Shown here one piece after another: positions 1-39,733 of a stretch of DNA of 39,733 nucleotides. The stretch is from a virus. Made by a program: the position numbers and the translations under genes. The notes under the pieces are model-generated. The model was given only the letters and a program-made list of their open reading frames with translations, searched no databases and was not told the origin of the DNA. The stretch lies in IMG/VR virus record IMGVR_UViG_3300045988_046012, positions 1-39,733 of that record; one strand, given 5' to 3'. Each line of letters starts with the position of its first letter. Within the stretch, counting starts at the first letter, position 1.

Positions 1-99
1 ATTTTTTTTGTGACAATCCGGTGCTGGCGCGGATTGCTTTAATTTGTTCCGATGGAGTCATATCTCACCATCCTTAAGCCACTTGTTGACATACTCAAC
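1..99. repeat. Terminal direct repeat, copy 1 (identical to 39635-39733); circular-assembly overlap or terminal redundancy
   Basis: Hand alignment: a+8T+gtgacaatccggtgctggcgcgg...catactcaac is present at both window ends, 99/99 identical. Confidence 0.95.
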
Positions 100-249
100 T
101 ACAGTATCCATATCAATATCATCCAGATCGTCATCATCTTCGGACAGCCCCACCCCTGCAAGGATTTGTTGGGCATCCTCCAGCGAGACCCGGGAAATGT
201 CTGCGGGTAATTTATCGTAGATGGTTAGCGCTACATCGTAGTCAGTCAT
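58..249 (-). CDS. Small, very acidic protein (63 aa), first gene of an operator-controlled operon; candidate anti-defence protein
   Basis: ORF track; strong SD on the minus strand (caaGGAGGaaacaaaaATG); run of D/E (SEDDDDLDDIDMD); stop overlaps the start of the HTH gene by 4 nt (ATGA) once the contig is circularised. Confidence 0.8.
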   Translation of the reverse strand: MTDYDVALTIYDKLPADISRVSLEDAQQILAGVGLSEDDDDLDDIDMDTVVEYVNKWLKDGEI

Positions 250-292
250 TTTTGTTTCCTCCTTGTATTAAGTATCTCCATTAACTGTCTTT

Positions 293-321
293 ATTATACT
301 ACACATGTGTGTAGTTGTCAA
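293..321 (-). promoter_or_regulatory. Sigma-70-type promoter with palindromic operator in the spacer (copy 1)
   Basis: Minus strand reads TTGACA (316-321), 17-nt spacer, TATAAT (293-298). The spacer holds the inverted repeat CTACACA-tg-TGTGTAG (299-314). Same architecture as 39456-39484. Confidence 0.75.
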
Positions 322-416
322 GCATCGAATGATATTTTTAAGAGATTTTTATGGGATTTTTCCCGCATGGTGGATTTACCAGAAATTTGGTACGGTATAG
401 GCAGGAGGTGGGGCAA

Positions 417-794
417 ATGTGGCGCTCTTACAACGCAAACCCAGACCGAGAAAATGTTGGAGACTGCGTTATCAGATCCATTTGCGCCGCAGAAAAATTG
501 CCGTGGGAGGACACATACATAGGGATATGTGCCAAGGGCCTCCTGCTCCACGATTTGCCGTCAGCTAACCGCGTTTGGGGAGCGTATCTCAGGCAGAAGG
601 GCTATACACGACACGCCCTGCCAAACACATGCCCGGACTGCTACACTGTGGCAAACTTTGCGGCGGATCACCCAACCGGAACGTATGTTTTGGCGCTCCC
701 CGCCCATGTCGTATGCGTCCGTGATGGTGACTGGATCGACACATGGGACAGCGGCGACGAGACACCCATCTACTATTGGACTAAGGAGGGATAG
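417..794 (+). CDS. Hypothetical protein, first gene of the accessory operon; possible Cys-His-Asp (papain-like) fold
   Basis: AGGAGG at 403-408, 8 nt before ATG 417 (internal Met of ORF 351..794). The pattern NVGDC ... AHVVCVRDG ... DTWDSG suggests a Cys/His/Asp triad; motif-level only. Confidence 0.7.
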   Translation: MWRSYNANPDRENVGDCVIRSICAAEKLPWEDTYIGICAKGLLLHDLPSANRVWGAYLRQKGYTRHALPNTCPDCYTVANFAADHPTGTYVLALPAHVVCVRDGDWIDTWDSGDETPIYYWTKEG

Positions 795-795
795 C

Positions 796-1209
796 ATGGC
801 CTATACACCATATGGCGGATATAATTTTGGCTACCAACCTAATATGTATCAGCCAATGCAGAGCCAACCCACGCAGGATCAGTTTGCACAGTACCGGCAG
901 AACCAGCAGCAGGGCATGATTTGGGTGCAGGGCGAGTCAGGGGCAAAAAGCTACCTTGTTTCCGCTGGATGTACTGTCCCCCTGTGGGACAGCGAAAATC
1001 AGACAGTCTACATCAAATCCTGCGATGCATCCGGCATGCCGTCGATGCGAATCATCGACTATACAGAGCGGGTACAGGCTCATGGTCAAGCTCCGGCGGC
1101 AGCTCCTAAACTGGAGTATGTAACACGGCAGGAGTATGACGCGCTCGCTGCCAGAGTAGACGCGCTGAGCAAAAAGGAGGCCACGCAGAATGCCGAACCC
1201 ACTGTTTAA
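796..1209 (+). CDS. Hypothetical protein with Q/N/Y-rich N-terminus
   Basis: AAGGAGGG 5 nt before ATG 796 (in frame of ORF 529..1209); starts right after the stop of the previous gene; low-complexity QPNMYQPMQSQPTQDQ then a globular part. Confidence 0.75.
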   Translation: MAYTPYGGYNFGYQPNMYQPMQSQPTQDQFAQYRQNQQQGMIWVQGESGAKSYLVSAGCTVPLWDSENQTVYIKSCDASGMPSMRIIDYTERVQAHGQAPAAAPKLEYVTRQEYDALAARVDALSKKEATQNAEPTV

Positions 1210-1414
1210 CGCCCTAGGCGGGAGCCAGATGCCCGGGCCACTGGGCAACTTTGCACAGATGATGCAGCAATTTCAGCAGTTTAAGGCAAACTTCCATGGA
1301 GACCCAAAAGCTGAGGTGCAAAAGCTGTTGCAATCCGGCAAAATGTCGCAGCAGCAATTAGACCAGCTCCAGGCGGCCGCGAAGCAGTTTCAGGCGTTGC
1401 TGGGTAATAAGTAA
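1190..1414 (+). CDS. Small Q-rich helical protein (74 aa)
   Basis: ORF track; GGAGG 1176-1180, 9 nt before the ATG; overlaps the previous gene end (translational coupling). Confidence 0.75.
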   Translation: MPNPLFNALGGSQMPGPLGNFAQMMQQFQQFKANFHGDPKAEVQKLLQSGKMSQQQLDQLQAAAKQFQALLGNK

Positions 1415-1466
1415 GCGATTCCGGCCGGAATTGAAATAAATCAAAATTTTGAAAGGGGGAGACATT

Positions 1467-2213
1467 ATGTCTCTGACAACTAGCGAGATGACCCCTGCTG
1501 ATATCGCGGCTGTGACCAACAACGGCGGCAATAGCGGCTGGGGATTCGGCGGCGACGGCGCATGGTGGATTATCATCCTGTTCTTGTTCGTTTTCTGCGG
1601 CTGGGGCGGCAATTGGGGCAACAGCGGTATGGGTGGCAACGGCGCGGGCGCCGTTGATGGCTATGTGCTGACCTCCGATTTTGCCAACATCGAGCGCAAG
1701 ATCGACAGTGTAAATCAGGGCCTTTGCGACGGATTTTATCAGCAGGCGCAGCTTGTCAACGGCACAAACATGGCGATGGCAAACGGCTTTGCACAGGCGG
1801 AGCTGTCCCGCTGCAACCAGCAGGCGGCGCTTATGCAGCAGCTTAACAACATGGCGATGCAGCAGGCTAATTGCTGCTGCGAGACCAGAGAGGCAATCCA
1901 GGGTGTAAATTACAACCTGGCAACCCAGAGCTGCGACACCCGCAACACTATCCAGAATACCACACGTGACATCATCGACGCGGTGAATTGCGGTTTCCGA
2001 AGCCTGGATCAGCGCCTGACCTCTCAGGAGATTGCGGCGAAGGACAGCAAGATTGCCGAGCAGAACCAGCAGCTTTTCGCGGCCCAGCTGGCAGCATCTC
2101 AGGCGGCGCAGAACAACTACCTGGTGTCTCAGCTCCGGCCTACCCCCATCCCGGCTTATGCATCCTGCAACCCCTGGGCTGCTGGATCGTATACCGGATG
2201 CGCCGGTTGCTAA
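1467..2213 (+). CDS. Membrane protein: G/N/W-rich N-terminus, one TM helix, Q/N-rich coiled region, Cys-rich C-terminal half
   Basis: SD aaGGGGGa 6 nt before ATG 1467 (the TTG 1449 start in the track is too close to the SD); hydrophobic WWIIILFLFVFCGW; motifs CCCETRE and C-terminal GCAGC. Confidence 0.75.
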   Translation: MSLTTSEMTPADIAAVTNNGGNSGWGFGGDGAWWIIILFLFVFCGWGGNWGNSGMGGNGAGAVDGYVLTSDFANIERKIDSVNQGLCDGFYQQAQLVNGTNMAMANGFAQAELSRCNQQAALMQQLNNMAMQQANCCCETREAIQGVNYNLATQSCDTRNTIQNTTRDIIDAVNCGFRSLDQRLTSQEIAAKDSKIAEQNQQLFAAQLAASQAAQNNYLVSQLRPTPIPAYASCNPWAAGSYTGCAGC

Positions 2214-2317
2214 CTGCATAGAGATCAACTGTTCGGGATTCCCGGACTGTTCGGCTCCTGCCGATAATGATTACGCGGCGGGGATCACACCCCGCCGCTT
2301 TTTGAAAGGAGAAAAAA

Positions 2318-2740
2318 ATGGCCGAGTACACAAATAGCAACGTTGTGGCGGTAGCTGCTGGTCAAAACGTACCGCTGACGGAGACCGCTGTAGCTGGGAA
2401 ATCCTGCGTAGTGCACCGGGAAGGCGCTGGTATTGTCACACTGCGTGGCCTGACAAATCAGTGCAAGGCCCGGTATAAGGTCAGCTTTGGCGGCAATATC
2501 GCCGTTCCTACCGGCGGCACTGTTGAGGCAATCACCGCAGCCCTGGCGGTTAACGGGGAGGCACTGGCTAGCACCACGGCTACCGTTACCCCTGCGGCGG
2601 TGGAGAACTATTTTAACGTCTATGTTGCGGCATTTGTCGAGGTGCCGCGTGGCTGCTGCGTAACCGTTGCGGCGAGAAATACTAGCACCCAGACGATCAA
2701 TTTTGCCAATAGCAATCTGATTATTGAGCGTGTGGCATAA
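2318..2740 (+). CDS. Hypothetical beta-rich protein (140 aa); reminiscent of BclA C-terminal / C1q-TNF-like jelly-roll domains
   Basis: SD gaaAGGAGaaaaaaATG; alternating beta-like pattern, no repeats; the similarity is recollection-level only. Confidence 0.7.
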   Translation: MAEYTNSNVVAVAAGQNVPLTETAVAGKSCVVHREGAGIVTLRGLTNQCKARYKVSFGGNIAVPTGGTVEAITAALAVNGEALASTTATVTPAAVENYFNVYVAAFVEVPRGCCVTVAARNTSTQTINFANSNLIIERVA

Positions 2741-2754
2741 GGGAGGGATATATA

Positions 2755-3159
2755 ATGAGTATGCAGGCAATGGACGAGCTGCGGGAAATGCTCTGCAAAG
2801 AGCTGGACGAGATCAGCCGGAAGGGCGAGCTTGGAGCTGGTGACCTAGATATCGTGCACAAGCTGACCGATACCATCAAAAATATTGACAAAATCGAGAT
2901 GCTGGAAGATGACGGTTATAGCCGTGACGGCGCATGGGAGGCCGACATGCGCGGCAACTATGGGCGCGGCAATAGCTACGCCAGTCGCCGGGGAACCCAT
3001 TATGTTAAGGGACATTATAGCCGTCGTGGGACTGACGGCTATAGCCGTACCGACAGCATTGAGGCATTCCGAGACCGTGCGCGGGAGATGATGCGGAACG
3101 CAACCGGCGAAGAACGCGAAGTGCTCCAGCGCTGCGTGGACGCTCTGGATCGGGCATAG
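2755..3159 (+). CDS. Hypothetical protein with helical ends and a central G/Y/S/R-rich low-complexity segment
   Basis: SD aaGGGAGGgatatataATG; central segment DGYSRDGAWEADMRGNYGRGNSYASRRGTHYVKGHYSRRGTDGYSR. Confidence 0.75.
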   Translation: MSMQAMDELREMLCKELDEISRKGELGAGDLDIVHKLTDTIKNIDKIEMLEDDGYSRDGAWEADMRGNYGRGNSYASRRGTHYVKGHYSRRGTDGYSRTDSIEAFRDRAREMMRNATGEEREVLQRCVDALDRA

Positions 3160-3173
3160 CCCAGGAGGGGCGT

Positions 3174-3482
3174 ATGCTTGATTTGGACGAGATTAACGCC
3201 GCCATCCAGGAACTGGAAAACGGCGAAACCACCCTAGCAAACTGCTCCAAACTAGCTACACTGCACACAGTAAGAGATCATCTAATAGAGACCGACTATG
3301 CGCCGTACTCCTATGCTTCTGCACCAGTGGTGGCCGTTTCTGGTGATAGCGATTTTTTACGTACCATTTTGGGCCGCGACAATCAGGCAGTGATGGATAT
3401 CATGGATGATCTCATGGATACGCTCAGGGTATCAATGCCCAAAGCGTATCGCAGCGTGATGGAGCGACTGCGGAGCATATAA
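3174..3482 (+). CDS. Hypothetical protein, last gene of the accessory operon
   Basis: SD ccAGGAGGggcgtATG; followed directly by a terminator hairpin. Confidence 0.75.
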   Translation: MLDLDEINAAIQELENGETTLANCSKLATLHTVRDHLIETDYAPYSYASAPVVAVSGDSDFLRTILGRDNQAVMDIMDDLMDTLRVSMPKAYRSVMERLRSI

Positions 3483-3484
3483 GT

Positions 3485-3508
3485 AGAGGGGCGGATAACC
3501 GCCCCTCT
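3485..3508. terminator. GC-rich hairpin, bidirectional terminator between the accessory operon and the integrase gene
   Basis: agaggggcgg-ataa-ccgcccctct, perfect 10-bp stem, followed by attatttgg. Confidence 0.75.
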
Positions 3509-3545
3509 ATTATTTGGTTATAATTAACTGTGAGCACACCAAAGG

Positions 3546-4871
3546 TTAAATATAGCCAGCTAATTCAAAATTTATTTCGCCGTCGTTGCTGACGGAGATT
3601 TTTTTAACGGTACGCCTCCAAAACTCACGACGCTCTGACGGCTCTAAACTGCCGTAAACATCCATCGTGGATTTTAATGCATCTACATCTATTTGCTCCT
3701 TTTCTTCCGGCTCCGGGGCTTCTAGCTGCTTCCTGAGCGATGTGTAGTCCTTTGCGTATACGTCGCGCTCTATCAAGTCGGACAGGTACAGATCTTTTAG
3801 TTTTTTCATTTTGCGCTTTATCGCCGCCTTGTCTACAGTTTGCTGATTGGATGCGTTCTGTTGGGCGATCTCTACATTATAGTTGATGCATCCGGATATG
3901 ATGTGATCTACCATGTACTGCTCCAGATCCTTTTCGCGCTCCCGGCGGCGATGGACGCAGGAGCGGCCTGCATAGCTCGGACACTTGTAGTACACGTATT
4001 CGCCGCCGTGGACGTGGGACATGGTGACGGACAGGCGACGGCCACACTCGGCGCAGAACACTATGCCGGTGAATAGATATATATGCTTTTGCGTAAAATC
4101 TCCGCTGTGACGGGTGGAACGTTCTGCCATGATGGACTGAGCAAGGGCAAAATCCTGCGGTGGGACGATGGGCGGGTATAACTGCTCACCGTTATCCGCA
4201 ACGCCAATATACCGCTTATTTTTGAGCATCTGCTTTGTGTTTTTGTAGGAGCGGGTGATACCATACTCGGATAGGAGATAGCGCCCAGTTGAGGTGACAG
4301 ACTGAGTGGCGATAAAGTGCCTGAACACATCTCGGACAACAGGGGCGGTTTCTGGGTCTTCCGTTAGCTTCCCTTTGACGATTTTTAGTCCAAGCGGTTG
4401 CGTGCCGTGATGGCACAAACCATTCTCCCGCTTATTTTTGTTTATGGTTTTGATTCGCTCAGATGTACGGTCAGCCTCTGACTCCGCGACCGATAGCATA
4501 ATGTTGACCTTAAATCTTCCGGCGCTGGTTTCTGTCTCATACTCCTCCTCAATCGTTTTCCAGCAGACGCGGTGCTCGTCCAAAACGTCCTGAACTTTAT
4601 AATATTCTTTGACATTTCTGAACCACCGGTCTAGCTTGGTAAATACAATCATCTCAATTTTACCAGCTCTAACATCGTTCAAAAGCCGCTGCAAATCCGG
4701 ACGCTTTGATGCTGGCTTTCTGGCTGATACTCCGGCGTCAACGTACACGCCCACTATCGTATGATGGTTTTCGTTTGCCCATTTTTTCAAATTTTCCTGC
4801 TGCACCCCGATTGACAAGCCGTGTATGGCCTGCTCCTCTGTGGACACTCGCGCATACAGCGCCACACGCAT
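3546..4871 (-). CDS. int: Large serine recombinase (phage integrase)
   Basis: N-terminal resolvase motif MRVALYARVSTEEQ, recombinase domain, Cys-rich zinc-ribbon region (CAECGRRL ... YYKCPS), C-terminal coiled coil; 441 aa. Confidence 0.9.
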   Translation of the reverse strand: MRVALYARVSTEEQAIHGLSIGVQQENLKKWANENHHTIVGVYVDAGVSARKPASKRPDLQRLLNDVRAGKIEMIVFTKLDRWFRNVKEYYKVQDVLDEHRVCWKTIEEEYETETSAGRFKVNIMLSVAESEADRTSERIKTINKNKRENGLCHHGTQPLGLKIVKGKLTEDPETAPVVRDVFRHFIATQSVTSTGRYLLSEYGITRSYKNTKQMLKNKRYIGVADNGEQLYPPIVPPQDFALAQSIMAERSTRHSGDFTQKHIYLFTGIVFCAECGRRLSVTMSHVHGGEYVYYKCPSYAGRSCVHRRREREKDLEQYMVDHIISGCINYNVEIAQQNASNQQTVDKAAIKRKMKKLKDLYLSDLIERDVYAKDYTSLRKQLEAPEPEEKEQIDVDALKSTMDVYGSLEPSERREFWRRTVKKISVSNDGEINFELAGYI

Positions 4872-5036: not shown

Positions 5037-5552
5037 TCATTGCTGGATTATCCCAATGTTTGGGTGCATGCGATCCCATATCAAATAAGACAGTAGCCCG
5101 GCAGCAACCAATATAAGCAGCAACGTGGCGATAGCTGCCCAGGTTATCATGATCTTTATCGTCTTAGACTTTCGCTTTATTTCTGCCTGCTGCTCCTCTA
5201 TGGTGGATTGCATGTGACTGATTCGCTCGGTGCGGTCTACGATCCCCTGCTGACGCTCTTTGTCTATCTCTTCGCGGGCAGCCAGCATAACCCTTAGTGC
5301 CTCTATGTTTTCCTGCGGTACGGTGTCTGGATTATATGCATCTCCGATGACCGCACGGGCAATTGCCTGGATCGTTGCAGGCCTGCATTGCTCGGCTGAT
5401 TCTATCGGAGCTGTCATGACCTTCTGGACGGTGGCTTTGCACACAGACTCCCCAGCTAATTCACAAGCATCTACAATCTGCTGGTATGTAATTCCCTTTT
5501 TATCTCTCATGGTTCGGATTTTCCGAATCAACTCGGCTTGATTCGGGGACAC
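5037..5552 (-). CDS. Membrane-anchored HTH regulator (N-terminal HTH, coiled coil, C-terminal TM helix)
   Basis: ORF track; KKGITYQQIVDACELAGESVCKATVQKV is HTH-like; hydrophobic C-terminus ITWAAIATLLLILVAAGLLSYLIW. Confidence 0.75.
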   Translation of the reverse strand: MSPNQAELIRKIRTMRDKKGITYQQIVDACELAGESVCKATVQKVMTAPIESAEQCRPATIQAIARAVIGDAYNPDTVPQENIEALRVMLAAREEIDKERQQGIVDRTERISHMQSTIEEQQAEIKRKSKTIKIMITWAAIATLLLILVAAGLLSYLIWDRMHPNIGIIQQ

Positions 5553-5767
5553 GATTTACCACCTCTTTTGTAAAATAGCACCAAAATAGTGCAATTATAG
5601 TACAAAAACATAGTTGAAATAGTATAAAAATGGTATTGCGTGGAAACGAAAACCGTGCTACTATGGTTTCAGCAAAGCACTGCGGGAGGTGAGCGACATG
5701 ACGCAGTGCCATGAGGATTACCCACCGCCGGAGGTGGAACAATTTATCAAACGACGCAGAAAACCAA

Positions 5768-6268
5768 TTAAAGATAGGAGTTGCTGGTAGTAGTGATCGG
5801 CTTGCTCTTGCAATAGGGCCGGAGATTTTCCCACAGGTAGCTCCCGGCAAGCGATCCTTCCGGCACCTCAAATACGATGGTATTTGCAGTTCCAGGCGCG
5901 GACTGCGGCTCGTAATTGAGAATAAAACAATCCACGTTTTTTTTGGCCTTGCTTTTAGTGCTGCCGATGATGGAGCCGACGATTGCCCCAGTGTCACCAA
6001 ACAGCAACCCACCGGCTACCGCCATACCAAGGGAGCGATTTCCAGCGTTTTGGATGTCCTGAGATTTTACAACGCCGCAACTAACAACCTGCTTGAGCTT
6101 CAGACGGCTGACGCTGCTTGACCCTTTGCCGGTAATAACCAATTCCTTGTTGTACATATCAAATACAACCTTTAGTTGCTGCCACTGGGACATCCCGGGC
6201 AAGCCCGATATGTGATTAAAATAGTATGTCGGGCGACGATCCGTGTTTTGATTGTTAAATAAGCCCAT
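5768..6268 (-). CDS. Hypothetical protein with a central glycine-zipper segment, located in the lysogeny module
   Basis: ORF track; SD on the minus strand (aacaaGGAGGaatcaatcATG); segment GMAVAGGLLFGDTGAIVGSIIG. Confidence 0.7.
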   Translation of the reverse strand: MGLFNNQNTDRRPTYYFNHISGLPGMSQWQQLKVVFDMYNKELVITGKGSSSVSRLKLKQVVSCGVVKSQDIQNAGNRSLGMAVAGGLLFGDTGAIVGSIIGSTKSKAKKNVDCFILNYEPQSAPGTANTIVFEVPEGSLAGSYLWENLRPYCKSKPITTTSNSYL

Positions 6269-6541
6269 GATTGATTCCTCCTTGTTTCTGATAAAATAAT
6301 TTTACCAAAAACAGAGAATTTTATCAAGGGCAAAAGAGCACGAAGGGAGAGAACGCGATTGTGCAAATTGTCAAAATGTCCTGATGTTACACACAACCTT
6401 GTCTAGACCTTGACTTAACTACCCGATGTTATCCAAGCGTTTATCCAAGCCACACCATTTTGTTGGCATCAACAGAATGGTAAACTGGTCGATTTCGACC
6501 AGTTTACATTGCCCGAATATACAATAAATAAGGAGGCACGT

Positions 6542-6664
6542 ATGGAAGAGGAATACAGAGACGAAATTAAGACGTTGGTCGACCAATGCGAAAACGAGCG
6601 GGATTTGTACCTGATTTGGTTATATGCCCAACATAGGGCAGAAAAGCATATGGGAAAAAAATAA
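6542..6664 (+). CDS. Small hypothetical protein (40 aa)
   Basis: Below the ORF-track size cut-off. AAGGAGG 6 nt before ATG 6542; reads MEEEYRDEIKTLVDQCENERDLYLIWLYAQHRAEKHMGKK; ends at the left half of a disrupted terminator. Confidence 0.5.
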   Translation: MEEEYRDEIKTLVDQCENERDLYLIWLYAQHRAEKHMGKK

Positions 6665-6724
6665 AATAAGGGAGCGGCTCTGATATGTACCCAGTTTACT
6701 GGACACTTTTATTGAATTGAACAA

Positions 6725-7612
6725 TTAACATTCCATCATGGATGCTTCCCGAAACTTAGAGGGAGGCATCCATTTTGTTTTCGCTTGGATTCGTCTGTTA
6801 TTGTAGTAGTCAATATACTCCGCAATTGTATTCTGAAAGGCTTCAAAGGACGGATACTCCTTCTCAAAGCCATAGAACATTTCGTTTTTCAGTCTGCCAA
6901 AGAATGTTTCCATGATGCAATTATCATAGCAGTTGCCCTTCCGGGACATGGATTGAATTACACCGTGATTCGCAAGTTCATTCCTATAAAACTCATGCTG
7001 GTATTGCCAGCCCTGATCCGAGTGCATGATCAGCCCCTGCACGGAAGGAAATCGCTGAAACGCTTTCGCCAGCATATCCTTGATCTGCTCCAGGTTTGGA
7101 CTGAGGGAAAGATTATAAGAAATGATCTCGTTTGTGTTCATGTCCAAAATCGGAGAGAGATAGCATTTGCCCCATGAAAGATTGAATTGTGAAACATCGG
7201 TTGTCCACTTTTGCAGCGGCCTCTTTGTACTGAAATCTCTATTGATGATATTAGCAGCAACTTTGCCAACTTCGCCCTTATAAGAATGATATTTTTCTTT
7301 CGGGCGCTTCCCCAGCAAGCCCAACTGGTGCATGATCCGCTGAACGCGTTTATGATTGACCTGATGACCGCGGCTCAGAAGCGCCTGATGCACCCGCCTT
7401 ACACCGTATCTTCCCTTGTTTTCGGCAAAAATGGACGATATTTCTGCGGATAACTCACTATTCCGCTCTTGAACCTTGTCTTTCTTGCTGATTTCATAGT
7501 AGTAGGTCGATCTGGAAAGGCCTAATGCTTCCAGCAAGTATTTCAGGGCATATCCTTCTTCACGGAGTTCTTTGACGAGCGTTGCTTTTTCGCCTTGAGT
7601 TGCTCTGCCCAT
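6725..7612 (-). CDS. IS3-family transposase OrfB (DDE / rve integrase core)
   Basis: ORF track; motifs WTTDVS, HSDQGWQY, NCYDNCIMETFFGRLKNE are typical of IS3 OrfB; probably made as an OrfAB fusion by -1 frameshift. Confidence 0.9.
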   Translation of the reverse strand: MGRATQGEKATLVKELREEGYALKYLLEALGLSRSTYYYEISKKDKVQERNSELSAEISSIFAENKGRYGVRRVHQALLSRGHQVNHKRVQRIMHQLGLLGKRPKEKYHSYKGEVGKVAANIINRDFSTKRPLQKWTTDVSQFNLSWGKCYLSPILDMNTNEIISYNLSLSPNLEQIKDMLAKAFQRFPSVQGLIMHSDQGWQYQHEFYRNELANHGVIQSMSRKGNCYDNCIMETFFGRLKNEMFYGFEKEYPSFEAFQNTIAEYIDYYNNRRIQAKTKWMPPSKFREASMMEC

Positions 7613-37518: not shown

Positions 37519-37732
37519 GAAGAAAATGTGGTGGAAGGCCGCCGGTATCCGCGCCGTGAAAACCGTGGCGCAGACGGCTGTAGCAATGATCCCCGCCGCC
37601 GTGACCATCGGGGCGGTGGACTGGGTAACTGTGGTAGGCACTGCGGCGCTGGCGGGCGTCGTGAGCCTGCTGACCAGCATCGCGGGACTGCCGGAAGTGG
37701 ACGAGAAGGAGGATAACAATGCATCTGTATAA
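37508..37732 (+). CDS. Holin
   Basis: 74 aa, two hydrophobic helices, charged C-terminus, immediately before the endolysin gene. Confidence 0.8.
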   Translation: MTIKKKMWWKAAGIRAVKTVAQTAVAMIPAAVTIGAVDWVTVVGTAALAGVVSLLTSIAGLPEVDEKEDNNASV

Positions 37733-38750
37733 GCATTACAGCGTCAATAATCCCTGCTACAAAAACAACGTCAACAAGGCTGACAGCCGGTACACCACGT
37801 TCCAGCAGCGCGGGCCTCTGGGGCTGATGCTGCACAGCGTGGGGTGCGCCCAGCCCAGCGCGAAGGTGTTTGCAGATCAGTGGAATCGGGGCGGAATTGA
37901 GGTTGCTGTGCACGCAGTGCTCCAGGCGGACGGCACCGTGTATCAGTGTCTCCCGTGGAATTATCGCGGCTGGCACGCAGGCGGAAACGCCAATAACACC
38001 CACGTGGGCGTGGAAATGGCGGAGCCGTCTCAGATCAAGTACACCGGCGGCAGCACCTTTACTGTGCTGGACAAGGCAGCGGCACAGGCACAGGCACAAG
38101 GCACATACCAGGCGGCGGTGGAGCTGTTTGCCAAGCTCTGCTATGACTACAAGCTTGACCCGCTGGCGGACGGCGTTATTATTAGCCACCATGAGGGATA
38201 CCTCAGGGGCGTGGCCTCCAACCACGGAGACCCGGAACACCTCTGGAGAGGCCTGGGCCTTAGCTACACCATGGACGGCTTCCGCCGGGACGTAAAGGCC
38301 GCAATGCCGACTGCATCCGGCAGCGCCACCAACAGCCGGAAGTATAAGCAGGGCTGGAACAAGGACGATAAGGGCTGGTGGTATGCGGACACCTCCAATA
38401 CCTACTACAAGGGCCGCTGGGCCAAAATCGACGGCAAGTGGTACAGCTTTGACAAGGAGGGCTATATGTTGAGCAATACGTGGCAAGTAGAGGCCGGAGG
38501 TGACACCTACTATCTCGGCGCGGAAGGAGATATGCAGACAAATATGGTTGTGGGACTGGGCAGTGACGGCAAGCTCCAGCCCAGTGAGCATTGGTGCCAC
38601 CTGCTATCGGATGTGCCCAGCGGGTACCGCGCAGAGCTGGACGCGCTTATTGCAAGCGGCAAGTTCAAGGGCAAGAGCGGCACCGGCGAAAATCTGGTGC
38701 TGGATATGCCGCTGAGTGCACTGCGGGTGCTGATTATCCTGAGCCGGTAA
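37719..38750 (+). CDS. Endolysin: N-acetylmuramoyl-L-alanine amidase (Amidase_2-like) with cell-wall-binding repeats
   Basis: N-terminal amidase motifs (HSVG ... AVHAV ... GWHAGG ... ISHHE) and GW/YY repeats (GWWYADTSNTYYKGRWAKIDGKWYSFDKEGYM). Confidence 0.85.
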   Translation: MHLYKHYSVNNPCYKNNVNKADSRYTTFQQRGPLGLMLHSVGCAQPSAKVFADQWNRGGIEVAVHAVLQADGTVYQCLPWNYRGWHAGGNANNTHVGVEMAEPSQIKYTGGSTFTVLDKAAAQAQAQGTYQAAVELFAKLCYDYKLDPLADGVIISHHEGYLRGVASNHGDPEHLWRGLGLSYTMDGFRRDVKAAMPTASGSATNSRKYKQGWNKDDKGWWYADTSNTYYKGRWAKIDGKWYSFDKEGYMLSNTWQVEAGGDTYYLGAEGDMQTNMVVGLGSDGKLQPSEHWCHLLSDVPSGYRAELDALIASGKFKGKSGTGENLVLDMPLSALRVLIILSR

Positions 38751-38765: not shown

Positions 38766-38963
38766 ATGCAGATCAAGGACTATACGACATCAGAGCTGGA
38801 GCATTTCCGGGAAGCCTGTAATTTTACCAGTCTGGAGCGGGAGTTTTTTGACCTGCGGGCAGCGGGAATTACGATCGAAAGTTGCTGCGACGCAATGGGG
38901 TATTCCATCGGCGGGATACGGCATATTTCCGGGCGGGTAAAAAATAAAATGAAACGGGTATGA
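38766..38963 (+). CDS. Small HTH protein (sigma-70 region-4 / LuxR-like)
   Basis: ORF track; GGAGGGGG upstream; SLEREFFDLRAAGITIESCCDAMGYSIGGIRHISGRV. Confidence 0.65.
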   Translation: MQIKDYTTSELEHFREACNFTSLEREFFDLRAAGITIESCCDAMGYSIGGIRHISGRVKNKMKRV

Positions 38964-38995
38964 AAAATCCCCCACCTTTCGGTGGGGGATTTTTC
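38964..38995. terminator. Bidirectional rho-independent terminator
   Basis: aaaaatcccccacc-tttc-ggtgggggattttt, perfect 10-bp stem with flanking A and T tracts; serves convergent genes. Confidence 0.85.
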
Positions 38996-39137: not shown

Positions 39138-39407
39138 TCAATCATAATCAAAACCGAGTTCACTTCGGGCCTCCCAGCCTTCAAACTCGTCGGGGTTGCC
39201 CCAAGTCTCTGTTGTTTTTCCTGCGTTAAAATTTTCAACCTCTTCGGCCCAGAAACTGACCTCTTCGGTGTACTGCTTTTCCGTGATTTCTGCGCCACAC
39301 ATCAGATGATCCTCCACGAGATCAGCAAAAAAATCTTCTCCCCAGCGTTCGCCGTCCCATGATCTCATGGTGAGTTCTTTTTCTGTGCCGTTTACATACA
39401 ATTTCAT
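39138..39407 (-). CDS. Small, very acidic W-rich protein (89 aa); candidate anti-defence protein
   Basis: ORF track; SD on the minus strand (caGGAGGacgacaaaATG); about 30% D/E; driven by operator promoter copy 2. Confidence 0.8.
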   Translation of the reverse strand: MKLYVNGTEKELTMRSWDGERWGEDFFADLVEDHLMCGAEITEKQYTEEVSFWAEEVENFNAGKTTETWGNPDEFEGWEARSELGFDYD

Positions 39408-39455
39408 TTTGTCGTCCTCCTGTCATGCTTTGGGGTAGCTCCCTTAACTGCCTTT

Positions 39456-39484
39456 ATTATAATACACACGTGTGTATATGTCAA
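39456..39484 (-). promoter_or_regulatory. Sigma-70-type promoter with palindromic operator in the spacer (copy 2)
   Basis: Minus strand TTGACA (39479-39484), 17 nt, TATAAT (39456-39461); perfect 16-bp palindrome ATACACACGTGTGTAT (39462-39477) in the spacer. Confidence 0.75.
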
Positions 39485-39503: not shown

Positions 39504-39695
39504 TTACTTTTTTTCGTCGGCGTCCAAAGCACGCACAGCCAGTCTGAGCAGCGGAATCACATAGGACGGCGGCGTTCTGTCTCCGGTCTCCCATGAAAGA
39601 ATGGTTCGCGCCGGAACACCGGTTTTATCTGCAAATTTTTTTTGTGACAATCCGGTGCTGGCGCGGATTGCTTTAATTTGTTCCGATGGAGTCAT
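39504..39695 (-). CDS. Small XRE/MqsA-like HTH regulator (63 aa), second gene of the wrap-around operon
   Basis: STGLSQKKFADKTGVPARTILSWETGDRTPP; its 5' end lies in the terminal repeat (equivalent to window positions 1-61). Confidence 0.85.
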   Translation of the reverse strand: MTPSEQIKAIRASTGLSQKKFADKTGVPARTILSWETGDRTPPSYVIPLLRLAVRALDADEKK

Positions 39696-39733
39696 ATCTC
39701 ACCATCCTTAAGCCACTTGTTGACATACTCAAC
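39635..39733. repeat. Terminal direct repeat, copy 2
   Basis: Identical to positions 1-99. Confidence 0.95.

Follow-up and report, generated by a model that had tools for sequence, protein, structure and literature searches.

A candidate acr-aca-type cassette with naturally swapped operator specificities in a temperate phage genome, probably from gut Clostridia

IMG/VR virus record IMGVR_UViG_3300045988_046012 was analysed from position 1 to position 39,733, and this whole stretch of 39,733 nucleotides is what I call the window. Its two ends carry an exact 99-bp repeat, so the contig closes on itself, as the initial annotation of this DNA had supposed, and 39,634 of its bases are unique. Judged by its sequence, the window is the circularly permuted or terminally redundant genome of a temperate phage. 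Across the junction, on the minus strand, lies a compact cassette: a promoter (P1), a gene for an acidic protein of 63 amino acids (aa), called acidic63 here, a gene for a helix-turn-helix (HTH) protein of the same length, HTH63, a second promoter (P2) and a gene for an acidic protein of 89 aa, orf89. The initial annotation had divided the HTH gene between window positions 61 to 1 and positions 39695 to 39504. The latter location stands. The former merely duplicates the first 61 bases by way of the repeat and is no separate piece. The acidic63 and HTH genes are contiguous in relatives that are assembled unbroken at this point, L001 and L008 (L numbers denote related loci, drawn from public assemblies and IMG/VR).

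The other elements of that annotation are where it had put them. The minus-strand promoter at 293-321 matches TTGACA-17-TATAAT at 12 of 12 positions; the inverted repeat CTACACA-tg-TGTGTAG occupies the spacer between -35 and -10, at 299-314; the acidic protein that runs from 249 to 58 has an isoelectric point (pI) of 4.05 and 18 Asp/Glu residues; and its TGA stop overlaps the ATG of HTH63, giving ATGA. An AAGGAGG ribosome-binding site at 257-263 stands ahead of the acidic63 ATG at 249. P2 begins twenty bases past the HTH stop, upstream of orf89, and P1 and P2 are the sole 12/12 promoters in the 39.7-kb genome. By my own estimate, about 0.01 exact 12/12 promoters would be expected in random sequence this long. 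Exact TACACANNTGTGTA sites are found at two places only in the genome, the spacers of P1 and P2. The palindrome in P2 is perfect over 16 nt, whereas the one in P1 has a non-symmetric centre (CA). It is speculation that this difference gives the two sites different affinities for the HTH protein.

Beyond this anatomy, comparison of sequences among relatives shows a coupling of HTH and operator, a mosaic of cargo genes and an association with the anti-CRISPR (Acr) protein AcrIC5. The coupling is seen most directly in L002 and L003. Acidic63 in these loci is 97% and 90% identical, respectively, to the protein of the window, while their HTH allele is only about 56% identical to HTH63, with the differences concentrated in the helices of the HTH (TQKEFEKAFGIPSRTYEAWEMG vs SQKKFADKTGVPARTILSWETG). 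In both promoters of L002 and L003, TACACA-N2-TGTGTA is replaced by CCGCAC-N3-GTGCGG. Allele A (VPARTILSWETG) pairs with TACACA-CG-TGTGTA and allele B (IPSRTYEAWEMG) with CCGCAC-N3-GTGCGG. How local the exchange has been is seen when the window and L002 are aligned by nucleotide: identity is 90-98% in the flanks, the -35, the -10, the leader and throughout the acidic gene, and the replaced parts are the P1 spacer, the body of the HTH gene and the P2 spacer, nothing else.

Loss of the regulator tells the same story. L004-L007 keep acidic63 and the promoter scaffold, and neither the HTH nor any palindrome is present there. More distant HTH subfamilies each have their own palindrome, always in the spacer of an adjoining near-consensus promoter, with CGCACA-A-TGTGCG, (N)CCG-AAW-CGG(N) and GCACC-N5-GGTGC among the examples. 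The best-supported inference from these sequences is that the HTH regulates itself through the spacer palindrome, because the two are replaced in a coordinated manner, are lost jointly, and are paired generally across the family.

The HTH gene is the conserved anchor of the cassette, and the small genes around it, mostly acidic, assort freely between phages. Between P1 and the HTH gene the window has acidic63 alone. In relatives the same interval is filled by a 62-aa or 113-aa gene plus acidic63, by a 62-aa plus a 123-aa gene, or by 107-/108-aa genes without acidic63. Behind P2 there is orf89 or a homologue of it (as in L012 and L014; a 46%-identical homologue is known at this position in relatives), or else an acidic protein of 83 aa accompanied by a zinc-ribbon protein of 196 aa and by others, or again an acidic 113-aa protein with a 181-aa HTH protein. 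Most of the cargo has a pI of about 4.1. In L090 and L091 the HTH gene ends an operon of 4-6 small acidic open reading frames (ORFs).

The link to AcrIC5 is found at the P2 position. The order in L003 is P1 (with operator), acidic63, HTH, P2 (with operator), AcrIC5 homologue, which is the architecture of the window with AcrIC5 replacing orf89. This P2 product of 57 aa belongs to the AcrIC5 family over its full length and matches the AcrIC5 of solved structure, 7YHR, with E = 6e-12. The AcrIC5 homologue of L004 matches Pfam PF22147 with E = 4e-25 (88 bits, cut-off 27), and the gene after it has a weak AP2 match (E = 0.038). Among gut bacteria, Firmicutes and Actinobacteria have AcrIC5 orthologues, and the I-C system of Eggerthella lenta is inhibited by the AcrIC5 of Pseudomonas (PMC7913775). 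Acrs that are small and highly acidic, AcrIC5 among them, are believed to fill the DNA-binding site of the effector (PMC10478522).

I propose that the cassette is an anti-defence unit of the acr-aca type, placed in the interval from lysis genes to integrase, and that acidic63 and orf89 are its payload, and I judge this to be probable. The initial annotation had already recognised the architecture of acr-aca and other anti-defence operons, and that view is now supported by the covariation of HTH and operator, by the variable cargo and by AcrIC5 behind P2 in sister phages. In the account that follows, I infer the repression, the dimer binding, the timing and the inhibitory activity of acidic63 and orf89. 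With promoters of consensus strength for sigma-A, strong ribosome-binding sites and unstructured leaders, P1 and P2 would fire at once when the DNA enters the cell. The transcript from P1 would give acidic63 and then, by translational coupling through the ATGA overlap, HTH63; that from P2 would give the 89-aa acidic protein. With rising levels HTH63, presumably in dimeric form, would come to bind TACACA-N2-TGTGTA, the palindrome that takes up the 17-nt spacers of P1 and P2. Bound there it would exclude RNA polymerase, and a burst of expression would give way to a low steady state, as Aca proteins bring about for anti-CRISPR genes. The two acidic proteins would then be the payload, most likely as inhibitors of some defence system in the host. 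The foremost candidate for the target is type I-C CRISPR-Cas, because an AcrIC5 homologue fills the same slot in sister phages. The features of the cassette are collected in Table 1.

Table 1. Positions in the window of the cassette's genes and regulatory features and of the terminal repeat
Feature	Position	Strand	Description
Promoter P1	321-293	minus	-35 TTGACA 321-316, 17-nt spacer, -10 TATAAT 298-293; 12/12 consensus
Operator O1 (presumed HTH site)	299..314	.	inverted repeat CTACACA-tg-TGTGTAG, wholly inside P1 spacer
Leader motif AAAGACAGTTAATGGAGATAC	272..292	minus	directly downstream of P1 -10; second copy behind P2 at 39435-39455
acidic63	58..249	minus	63-aa ORF, pI 4.05, 18 Asp/Glu; candidate anti-defence protein
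HTH63	39504..39695	minus	63-aa XRE-type helix-turn-helix; presumed Aca-like autorepressor
Promoter P2	39484-39456	minus	TTGACA-17-TATAAT, 12/12 consensus
Operator O2 (presumed HTH site)	39462..39477	.	perfect 16-nt palindrome ATACACACGTGTGTAT in P2 spacer
orf89	39138..39407	minus	89-aa acidic protein, pI 4.08; cargo of P2; candidate anti-defence protein
Bidirectional intrinsic terminator	38963..38995	.	-35.4 kcal/mol, z = -8.3; A run + T run either side
Terminal direct repeat	1..99 = 39635-39733	.	exact 99-bp match; marks circular or terminally redundant junction

The model leans on the leader as well as on the promoters. The leader motif, with consensus A(G/A)AG(A/G)CAGTTAAGGGAGATAC, follows the -10 of every promoter of the cassette family (window; L001-L019, L084-L088), and it occurs in 22 distinct promoter modules with any HTH allele, HTH-less loci included. 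The leaders are purine-rich and predicted to be unstructured (z about 0 to +1), and a scan of Rfam found no known RNA element. The leader is therefore unlike an RNA hairpin that an HTH protein might bind. A structured 5' untranslated region (UTR) such as Aca2 uses is rejected on both counts and by the retention of the motif whatever the HTH allele. Leader, AT-rich upstream region, consensus hexamers and AGGAGG may be taken together as a portable expression module. Within it, by my reading, a stabilising effect on the mRNA might come from the Shine-Dalgarno-like GGGAG close to the 5' end, as it does from 5' elements of this kind in Firmicutes.

HTH63 itself is a bare XRE domain and nothing more. 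It is matched by Pfam HTH_3 (E = 1e-8, 35 bits, cut-off 23) and by phrog_2104 (E = 1e-13). The family of acidic63 comprises just 31 clusters at 90% identity, whose members are 58-100% identical, all 60-63 aa long, unnamed, and all on phage-sized contigs of about 39-43 kb. When its profile was searched exhaustively against 1.8 billion representatives, essentially one real cluster was found; the remaining matches are fragments and giant repetitive proteins, probably matching the Asp-rich stretch. By these searches acidic63 is a lineage-restricted orphan. The first 13 N-terminal residues of acidic63 are invariant, and its dN/dS is 0.17-0.23 (at dS about 0.5-1.1), compared with 0.05-0.17 for HTH63, values by which both genes are under purifying selection. 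AlphaFold2 models acidic63 confidently as four helices (pLDDT 85), for which Foldseek gave no match at E <= 0.001 in either PDB or BFVD. Residues 44-55 have the conserved pattern D44-x-D46-x-D48-x-x-V51-E52-x-x-N55, loosely like the calcium-binding loop of an EF-hand. A likeness to calmodulin or the EF-hand was considered and set aside, the best Foldseek matches not being significant (E > 3). The family of orf89 is smaller, at 11 clusters; its AlphaFold2 model has a pLDDT of 75, and Foldseek against PDB gave no match at E <= 0.001.

How does the cassette compare with known acr-aca operons? Aca proteins bind an inverted repeat inside a strong core promoter, and the logic of burst followed by repression has been shown for them (PMC9410906). 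They can also regulate an adjacent operon besides their own (PMC12282945, PMC13551039). The cassette resembles operons with Aca1, Aca2, Aca10 and the Streptococcus proteins Aca11 and Aca13 in that its small genes form an operon with a small HTH gene as the 3'-most member, and in that a strong core promoter has an inverted repeat embedded in it, here in each of two promoters that match at 12 of 12 positions. It resembles them too in a single regulator with sites on its own and the adjacent downstream operon, in variable upstream cargo and, in sister phages, in having a known anti-CRISPR family, AcrIC5, under the same control. It differs from them in that no payload gene in the window is homologous to a validated Acr, such homologues being carried only by sister phages (L003 and L004). 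It differs also in its control region, with a single palindrome wholly inside a 17-nt spacer, no IR1/IR2 pair and no structured 5' UTR motif. HTH63 has no detectable sequence relationship to the solved Aca proteins and is only 63 aa long, a bare HTH that resembles the C-terminal domain of MqsA.

Other systems offer partial likenesses. In Cryptobacterium curtum AcrIC5 stands beside an AP2-domain gene, a pairing that was the basis for the discovery of AcrIB2 (bioRxiv 10.1101/2023.05.22.541795). L004 is like such AcrIC5-AP2 loci of gut Actinobacteria and Firmicutes in its order, AcrIC5 homologue and then weak AP2 match, and in its setting among anaerobes of the human or animal gut, whereas AcrIC5 and AP2 genes are both missing from the window, and the regulator in the window and in L003 is an XRE-type HTH. 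The controller (C) proteins of restriction-modification systems and the small XRE repressors of phages (C.BclI, P2 C, 434 cI) share the XRE HTH fold with HTH63, are among its best sequence matches of solved structure, and control their own promoter by way of palindromic operators located there. In C-protein switches the operator lies upstream of or across the -35 element. The cassette differs from them in having its operator inside the spacer and no restriction-modification genes, and the phage has a separate cI-like repressor. A restriction-modification controller was rejected as an identity for HTH63, since neither the cassette of the window nor that of any relative has a methyltransferase or restriction gene. 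HigA and MqsA antitoxins, finally, are like HTH63 in the sequence of their HTH and in the order of a small upstream gene and then the HTH gene. They are unlike it in that HTH63 scores under the MqsA family cut-off and has no zinc-finger domain, and in that the gene upstream of it is acidic, variable and dispensable. With such an upstream gene, acidic63 and the HTH are not an obligate pair.

Several results weigh against the cassette being an anti-defence unit, and they deserve to be set out together. The nearest named relatives of HTH63 are, by sequence, HTHs of the antitoxin and repressor type: TIGR03830, the C-terminal HTH of MqsA, at 37.1 bits (cut-off 61.8, and at profile positions 67-118 only), and further P2 C repressor, HigA-2, 434 cI and restriction-modification controller proteins (C.BclI). 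Among PDB chains, none named as an Aca protein was matched at E <= 1 with the single sequence or at E <= 0.001 with the profile. Acidic63 and orf89 found nothing in Pfam (E <= 1), PHROGs, NCBIfam, PADLOC or the PDB sequences, neither has a PF22147 (AcrIC5) match at E <= 1, and a relationship of acidic63 with AcrIC5 or with orf89 was rejected by profile-profile comparison (hhalign, probability < 1%), by which orf89 too is unrelated to AcrIC5. Among the genes of the window none was found to be homologous to a known protein of anti-CRISPR or anti-defence function, and the case for the function of acidic63 is purely one of guilt by association. The other cargo of the wider HTH family was searched for known anti-defence domains and none was found. 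In eight loci (L092-L099, at about 2650-4760 in each) distant HTH homologues of 50-58% identity follow a promoter with a palindrome in its spacer and a peptide of 38-44 aa, and the genes directly downstream of them read from their sequence as holin-like and amidase-like. Because these members sit by lysis genes and not by acidic cargo, the family, as far as its sequences tell, is not exclusively associated with anti-defence. Lastly, when the profiles of acidic63 and of the HTH were scanned against representative bacterial genomes, no close relative was found; the best HTH matches in them are at most 55% identical and come mostly from metagenome-assembled genomes of Clostridia.

It may be asked whether the same facts would be better explained by a generic moron, or lysogenic-conversion cassette, in which the HTH keeps accessory genes expressed by the prophage at a low level and the acidic proteins benefit the lysogen (by superinfection exclusion, for example, or through host physiology) with no inhibition of defence. 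The interval from lysis genes to integrase is the classical location of morons, and the cassette lies there with its own promoters and terminator. Some of the cargo in relatives is not Acr-like, namely the 196-aa basic multi-zinc-ribbon protein and the 181-aa HTH protein, with a ToxN gene next door in L018, and the distant HTH homologues that precede lysis genes would fit as well. In sister phages, however, a full-length AcrIC5-family gene lies under the same operator-controlled promoter, and this association makes the moron less likely. Most of the cargo, moreover, is small and strongly acidic, like many Acr and DNA-mimic proteins (PMC10478522), and a consensus promoter with an autorepressor fits the burst-then-repress logic of acr operons (PMC9410906). 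I consider a generic moron unlikely.

The close tie between acidic63 and HTH63 raises the question whether the former is payload at all. Translational coupling through ATGA is often a mark of proteins that act together, and the invariant 13 residues at the N-terminus would suit a fixed protein interface, as might be expected if acidic63 served the HTH as its partner in regulation, be it anti-repressor, co-repressor or chaperone. Yet acidic63 is 97% identical where the HTH has been swapped for a 56%-identical allele with a different operator. It persists in L004-L007, which have no HTH, and the HTH occurs without acidic63 in L012-L019, L084 and L085, so partnership is a quite improbable explanation. 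The independence of the two genes bears equally on the alternative that the initial annotation had kept in reserve, a toxin-antitoxin-like pair. Here acidic63 would be the toxin and the HTH both antitoxin and autorepressor, in a type II system of reverse order such as HigBA or MqsRA; the arrangement of a small gene, then an HTH, behind an autoregulated promoter does recall these, and the best named matches of the HTH include the MqsA C-terminal HTH (TIGR03830) and HigA-2. However, HTH63 lacks the zinc-finger N-domain and its score falls short of the MqsA cut-off, 61.8, while acidic63, with its pI of 4.05, matches no toxin family in Pfam, PHROG, PADLOC or NCBIfam. Obligate pairing fails, each gene occurring without the other in the loci just named, and the HTH has at least 5 unrelated genes as its upstream partner. 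This alternative is dropped as extremely improbable, and the acr-aca-type unit is retained.

Some relatives show how else the cassette can be furnished. L004 at 5189-6865 (and likewise L005-L007), without an HTH, has a gene for a 241-aa multi-zinc-ribbon protein directly after acidic63, and then a palindrome-free promoter upstream of the AcrIC5 homologue, followed by the AP2-like gene. This arrangement may represent an alternative regulator for the same cassette. The 181-aa cargo of P2 in L002 (5794-6339) and L084 (3626-4171) joins an N-terminal HTH related to HTH63 to a C-terminal domain of about 120 aa to which no function is assigned. In L018 (2612-3130 and 8059-8192) the cassette has just upstream of it a gene for a toxin of the ToxN family, known from type III toxin-antitoxin systems and abortive infection, and beyond the tail genes there is a reverse-transcriptase gene (RVT_1), possibly of a diversity-generating retroelement. 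An HNH/NUMOD homing-endonuclease gene has entered the divergent gene block in L008 (3344-3934) and L010 (3353-3943) and is absent in other relatives.

The surroundings of the cassette are best explained, from gene content, as the accessory region between lysis genes and integrase of a temperate siphovirus from gut Clostridia. On one side, PHROG scans place an endolysin at 37719-38750, with tail-fibre genes and one small gene, upstream of the terminator, which serves both the orf89 transcript and the convergent lysis genes and closes the cassette as a unit. On the other side they place a plus-strand block of conserved genes of unassigned function at 417-3482, and after it a serine integrase at 3546-4871 on the minus strand. 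The first gene of the block, divergent from P1 and present in all relatives, encodes a 125-aa protein (417-794, plus strand; phrog_3754, E = 3e-28), whose better start is ATG 417, with a GGAGG site, rather than ATG 351. When the whole window was compared with the GenBank phages by megablast, only two short 76% matches and no annotated relative were found. The similarity to a named phage is limited to Flavonifractor phage Chenonceau, at 76% over part of the terminase gene; the other match is an unannotated contig.

A cI-like repressor of 130 aa is encoded at 8173-8565, beside a divergent promoter pair near 8.6 kb, and because of it HTH63 is ruled out as the main lysogeny repressor. The two promoters, both 11/12, are at 8608 (minus) and 8641 (plus), flanked by the repressor gene and by an unannotated 89-aa plus-strand ORF, and the segment 8173-8927 is probably the lysogeny switch. 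Adjoining the repressor gene are two overlapping transposase-like ORFs at 6725-8106 on the minus strand (phrog_157, E = 7e-97; phrog_151, E = 2e-14), which suggests an insertion sequence within the phage genome.

The acr-aca operon and its control over more than one operon are already established, and what the cassette adds is incremental and not conceptual. On the evidence of sequence it is a candidate for a new family of Aca-like regulators, with operator specificities that have been swapped in nature, and it brings candidate anti-defence proteins with it. I would go further only tentatively, as to something that may well prove otherwise: that acidic63, and perhaps orf89, found an anti-CRISPR or anti-defence family with a small helical fold not seen before, in use by phages of gut Clostridia; that HTH63 represents a new Aca family, its operator wholly in the spacer and its specificity exchanged as a set of one regulator plus two operators; and that the unit of promoter and leader is a portable module of high expression for the shuffling of cargo among phages.

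Phages of gut Clostridia, which are strict anaerobes, have so far yielded few proteins of anti-CRISPR or anti-defence function and few regulators of the Aca type. The cassette offers a compact pair of regulator and operator with two natural variants of specificity, and its scaffold of HTH, palindrome and promoter is an anchor that can be used for guilt-by-association mining. It has already brought together about a dozen small acidic cargo proteins, at least one of them in a validated anti-CRISPR family. Should acidic63 or orf89 prove to be an inhibitor of type I-C or of some other system, these phages would provide inhibitors of use in the design of phage therapy and in the control of CRISPR tools.

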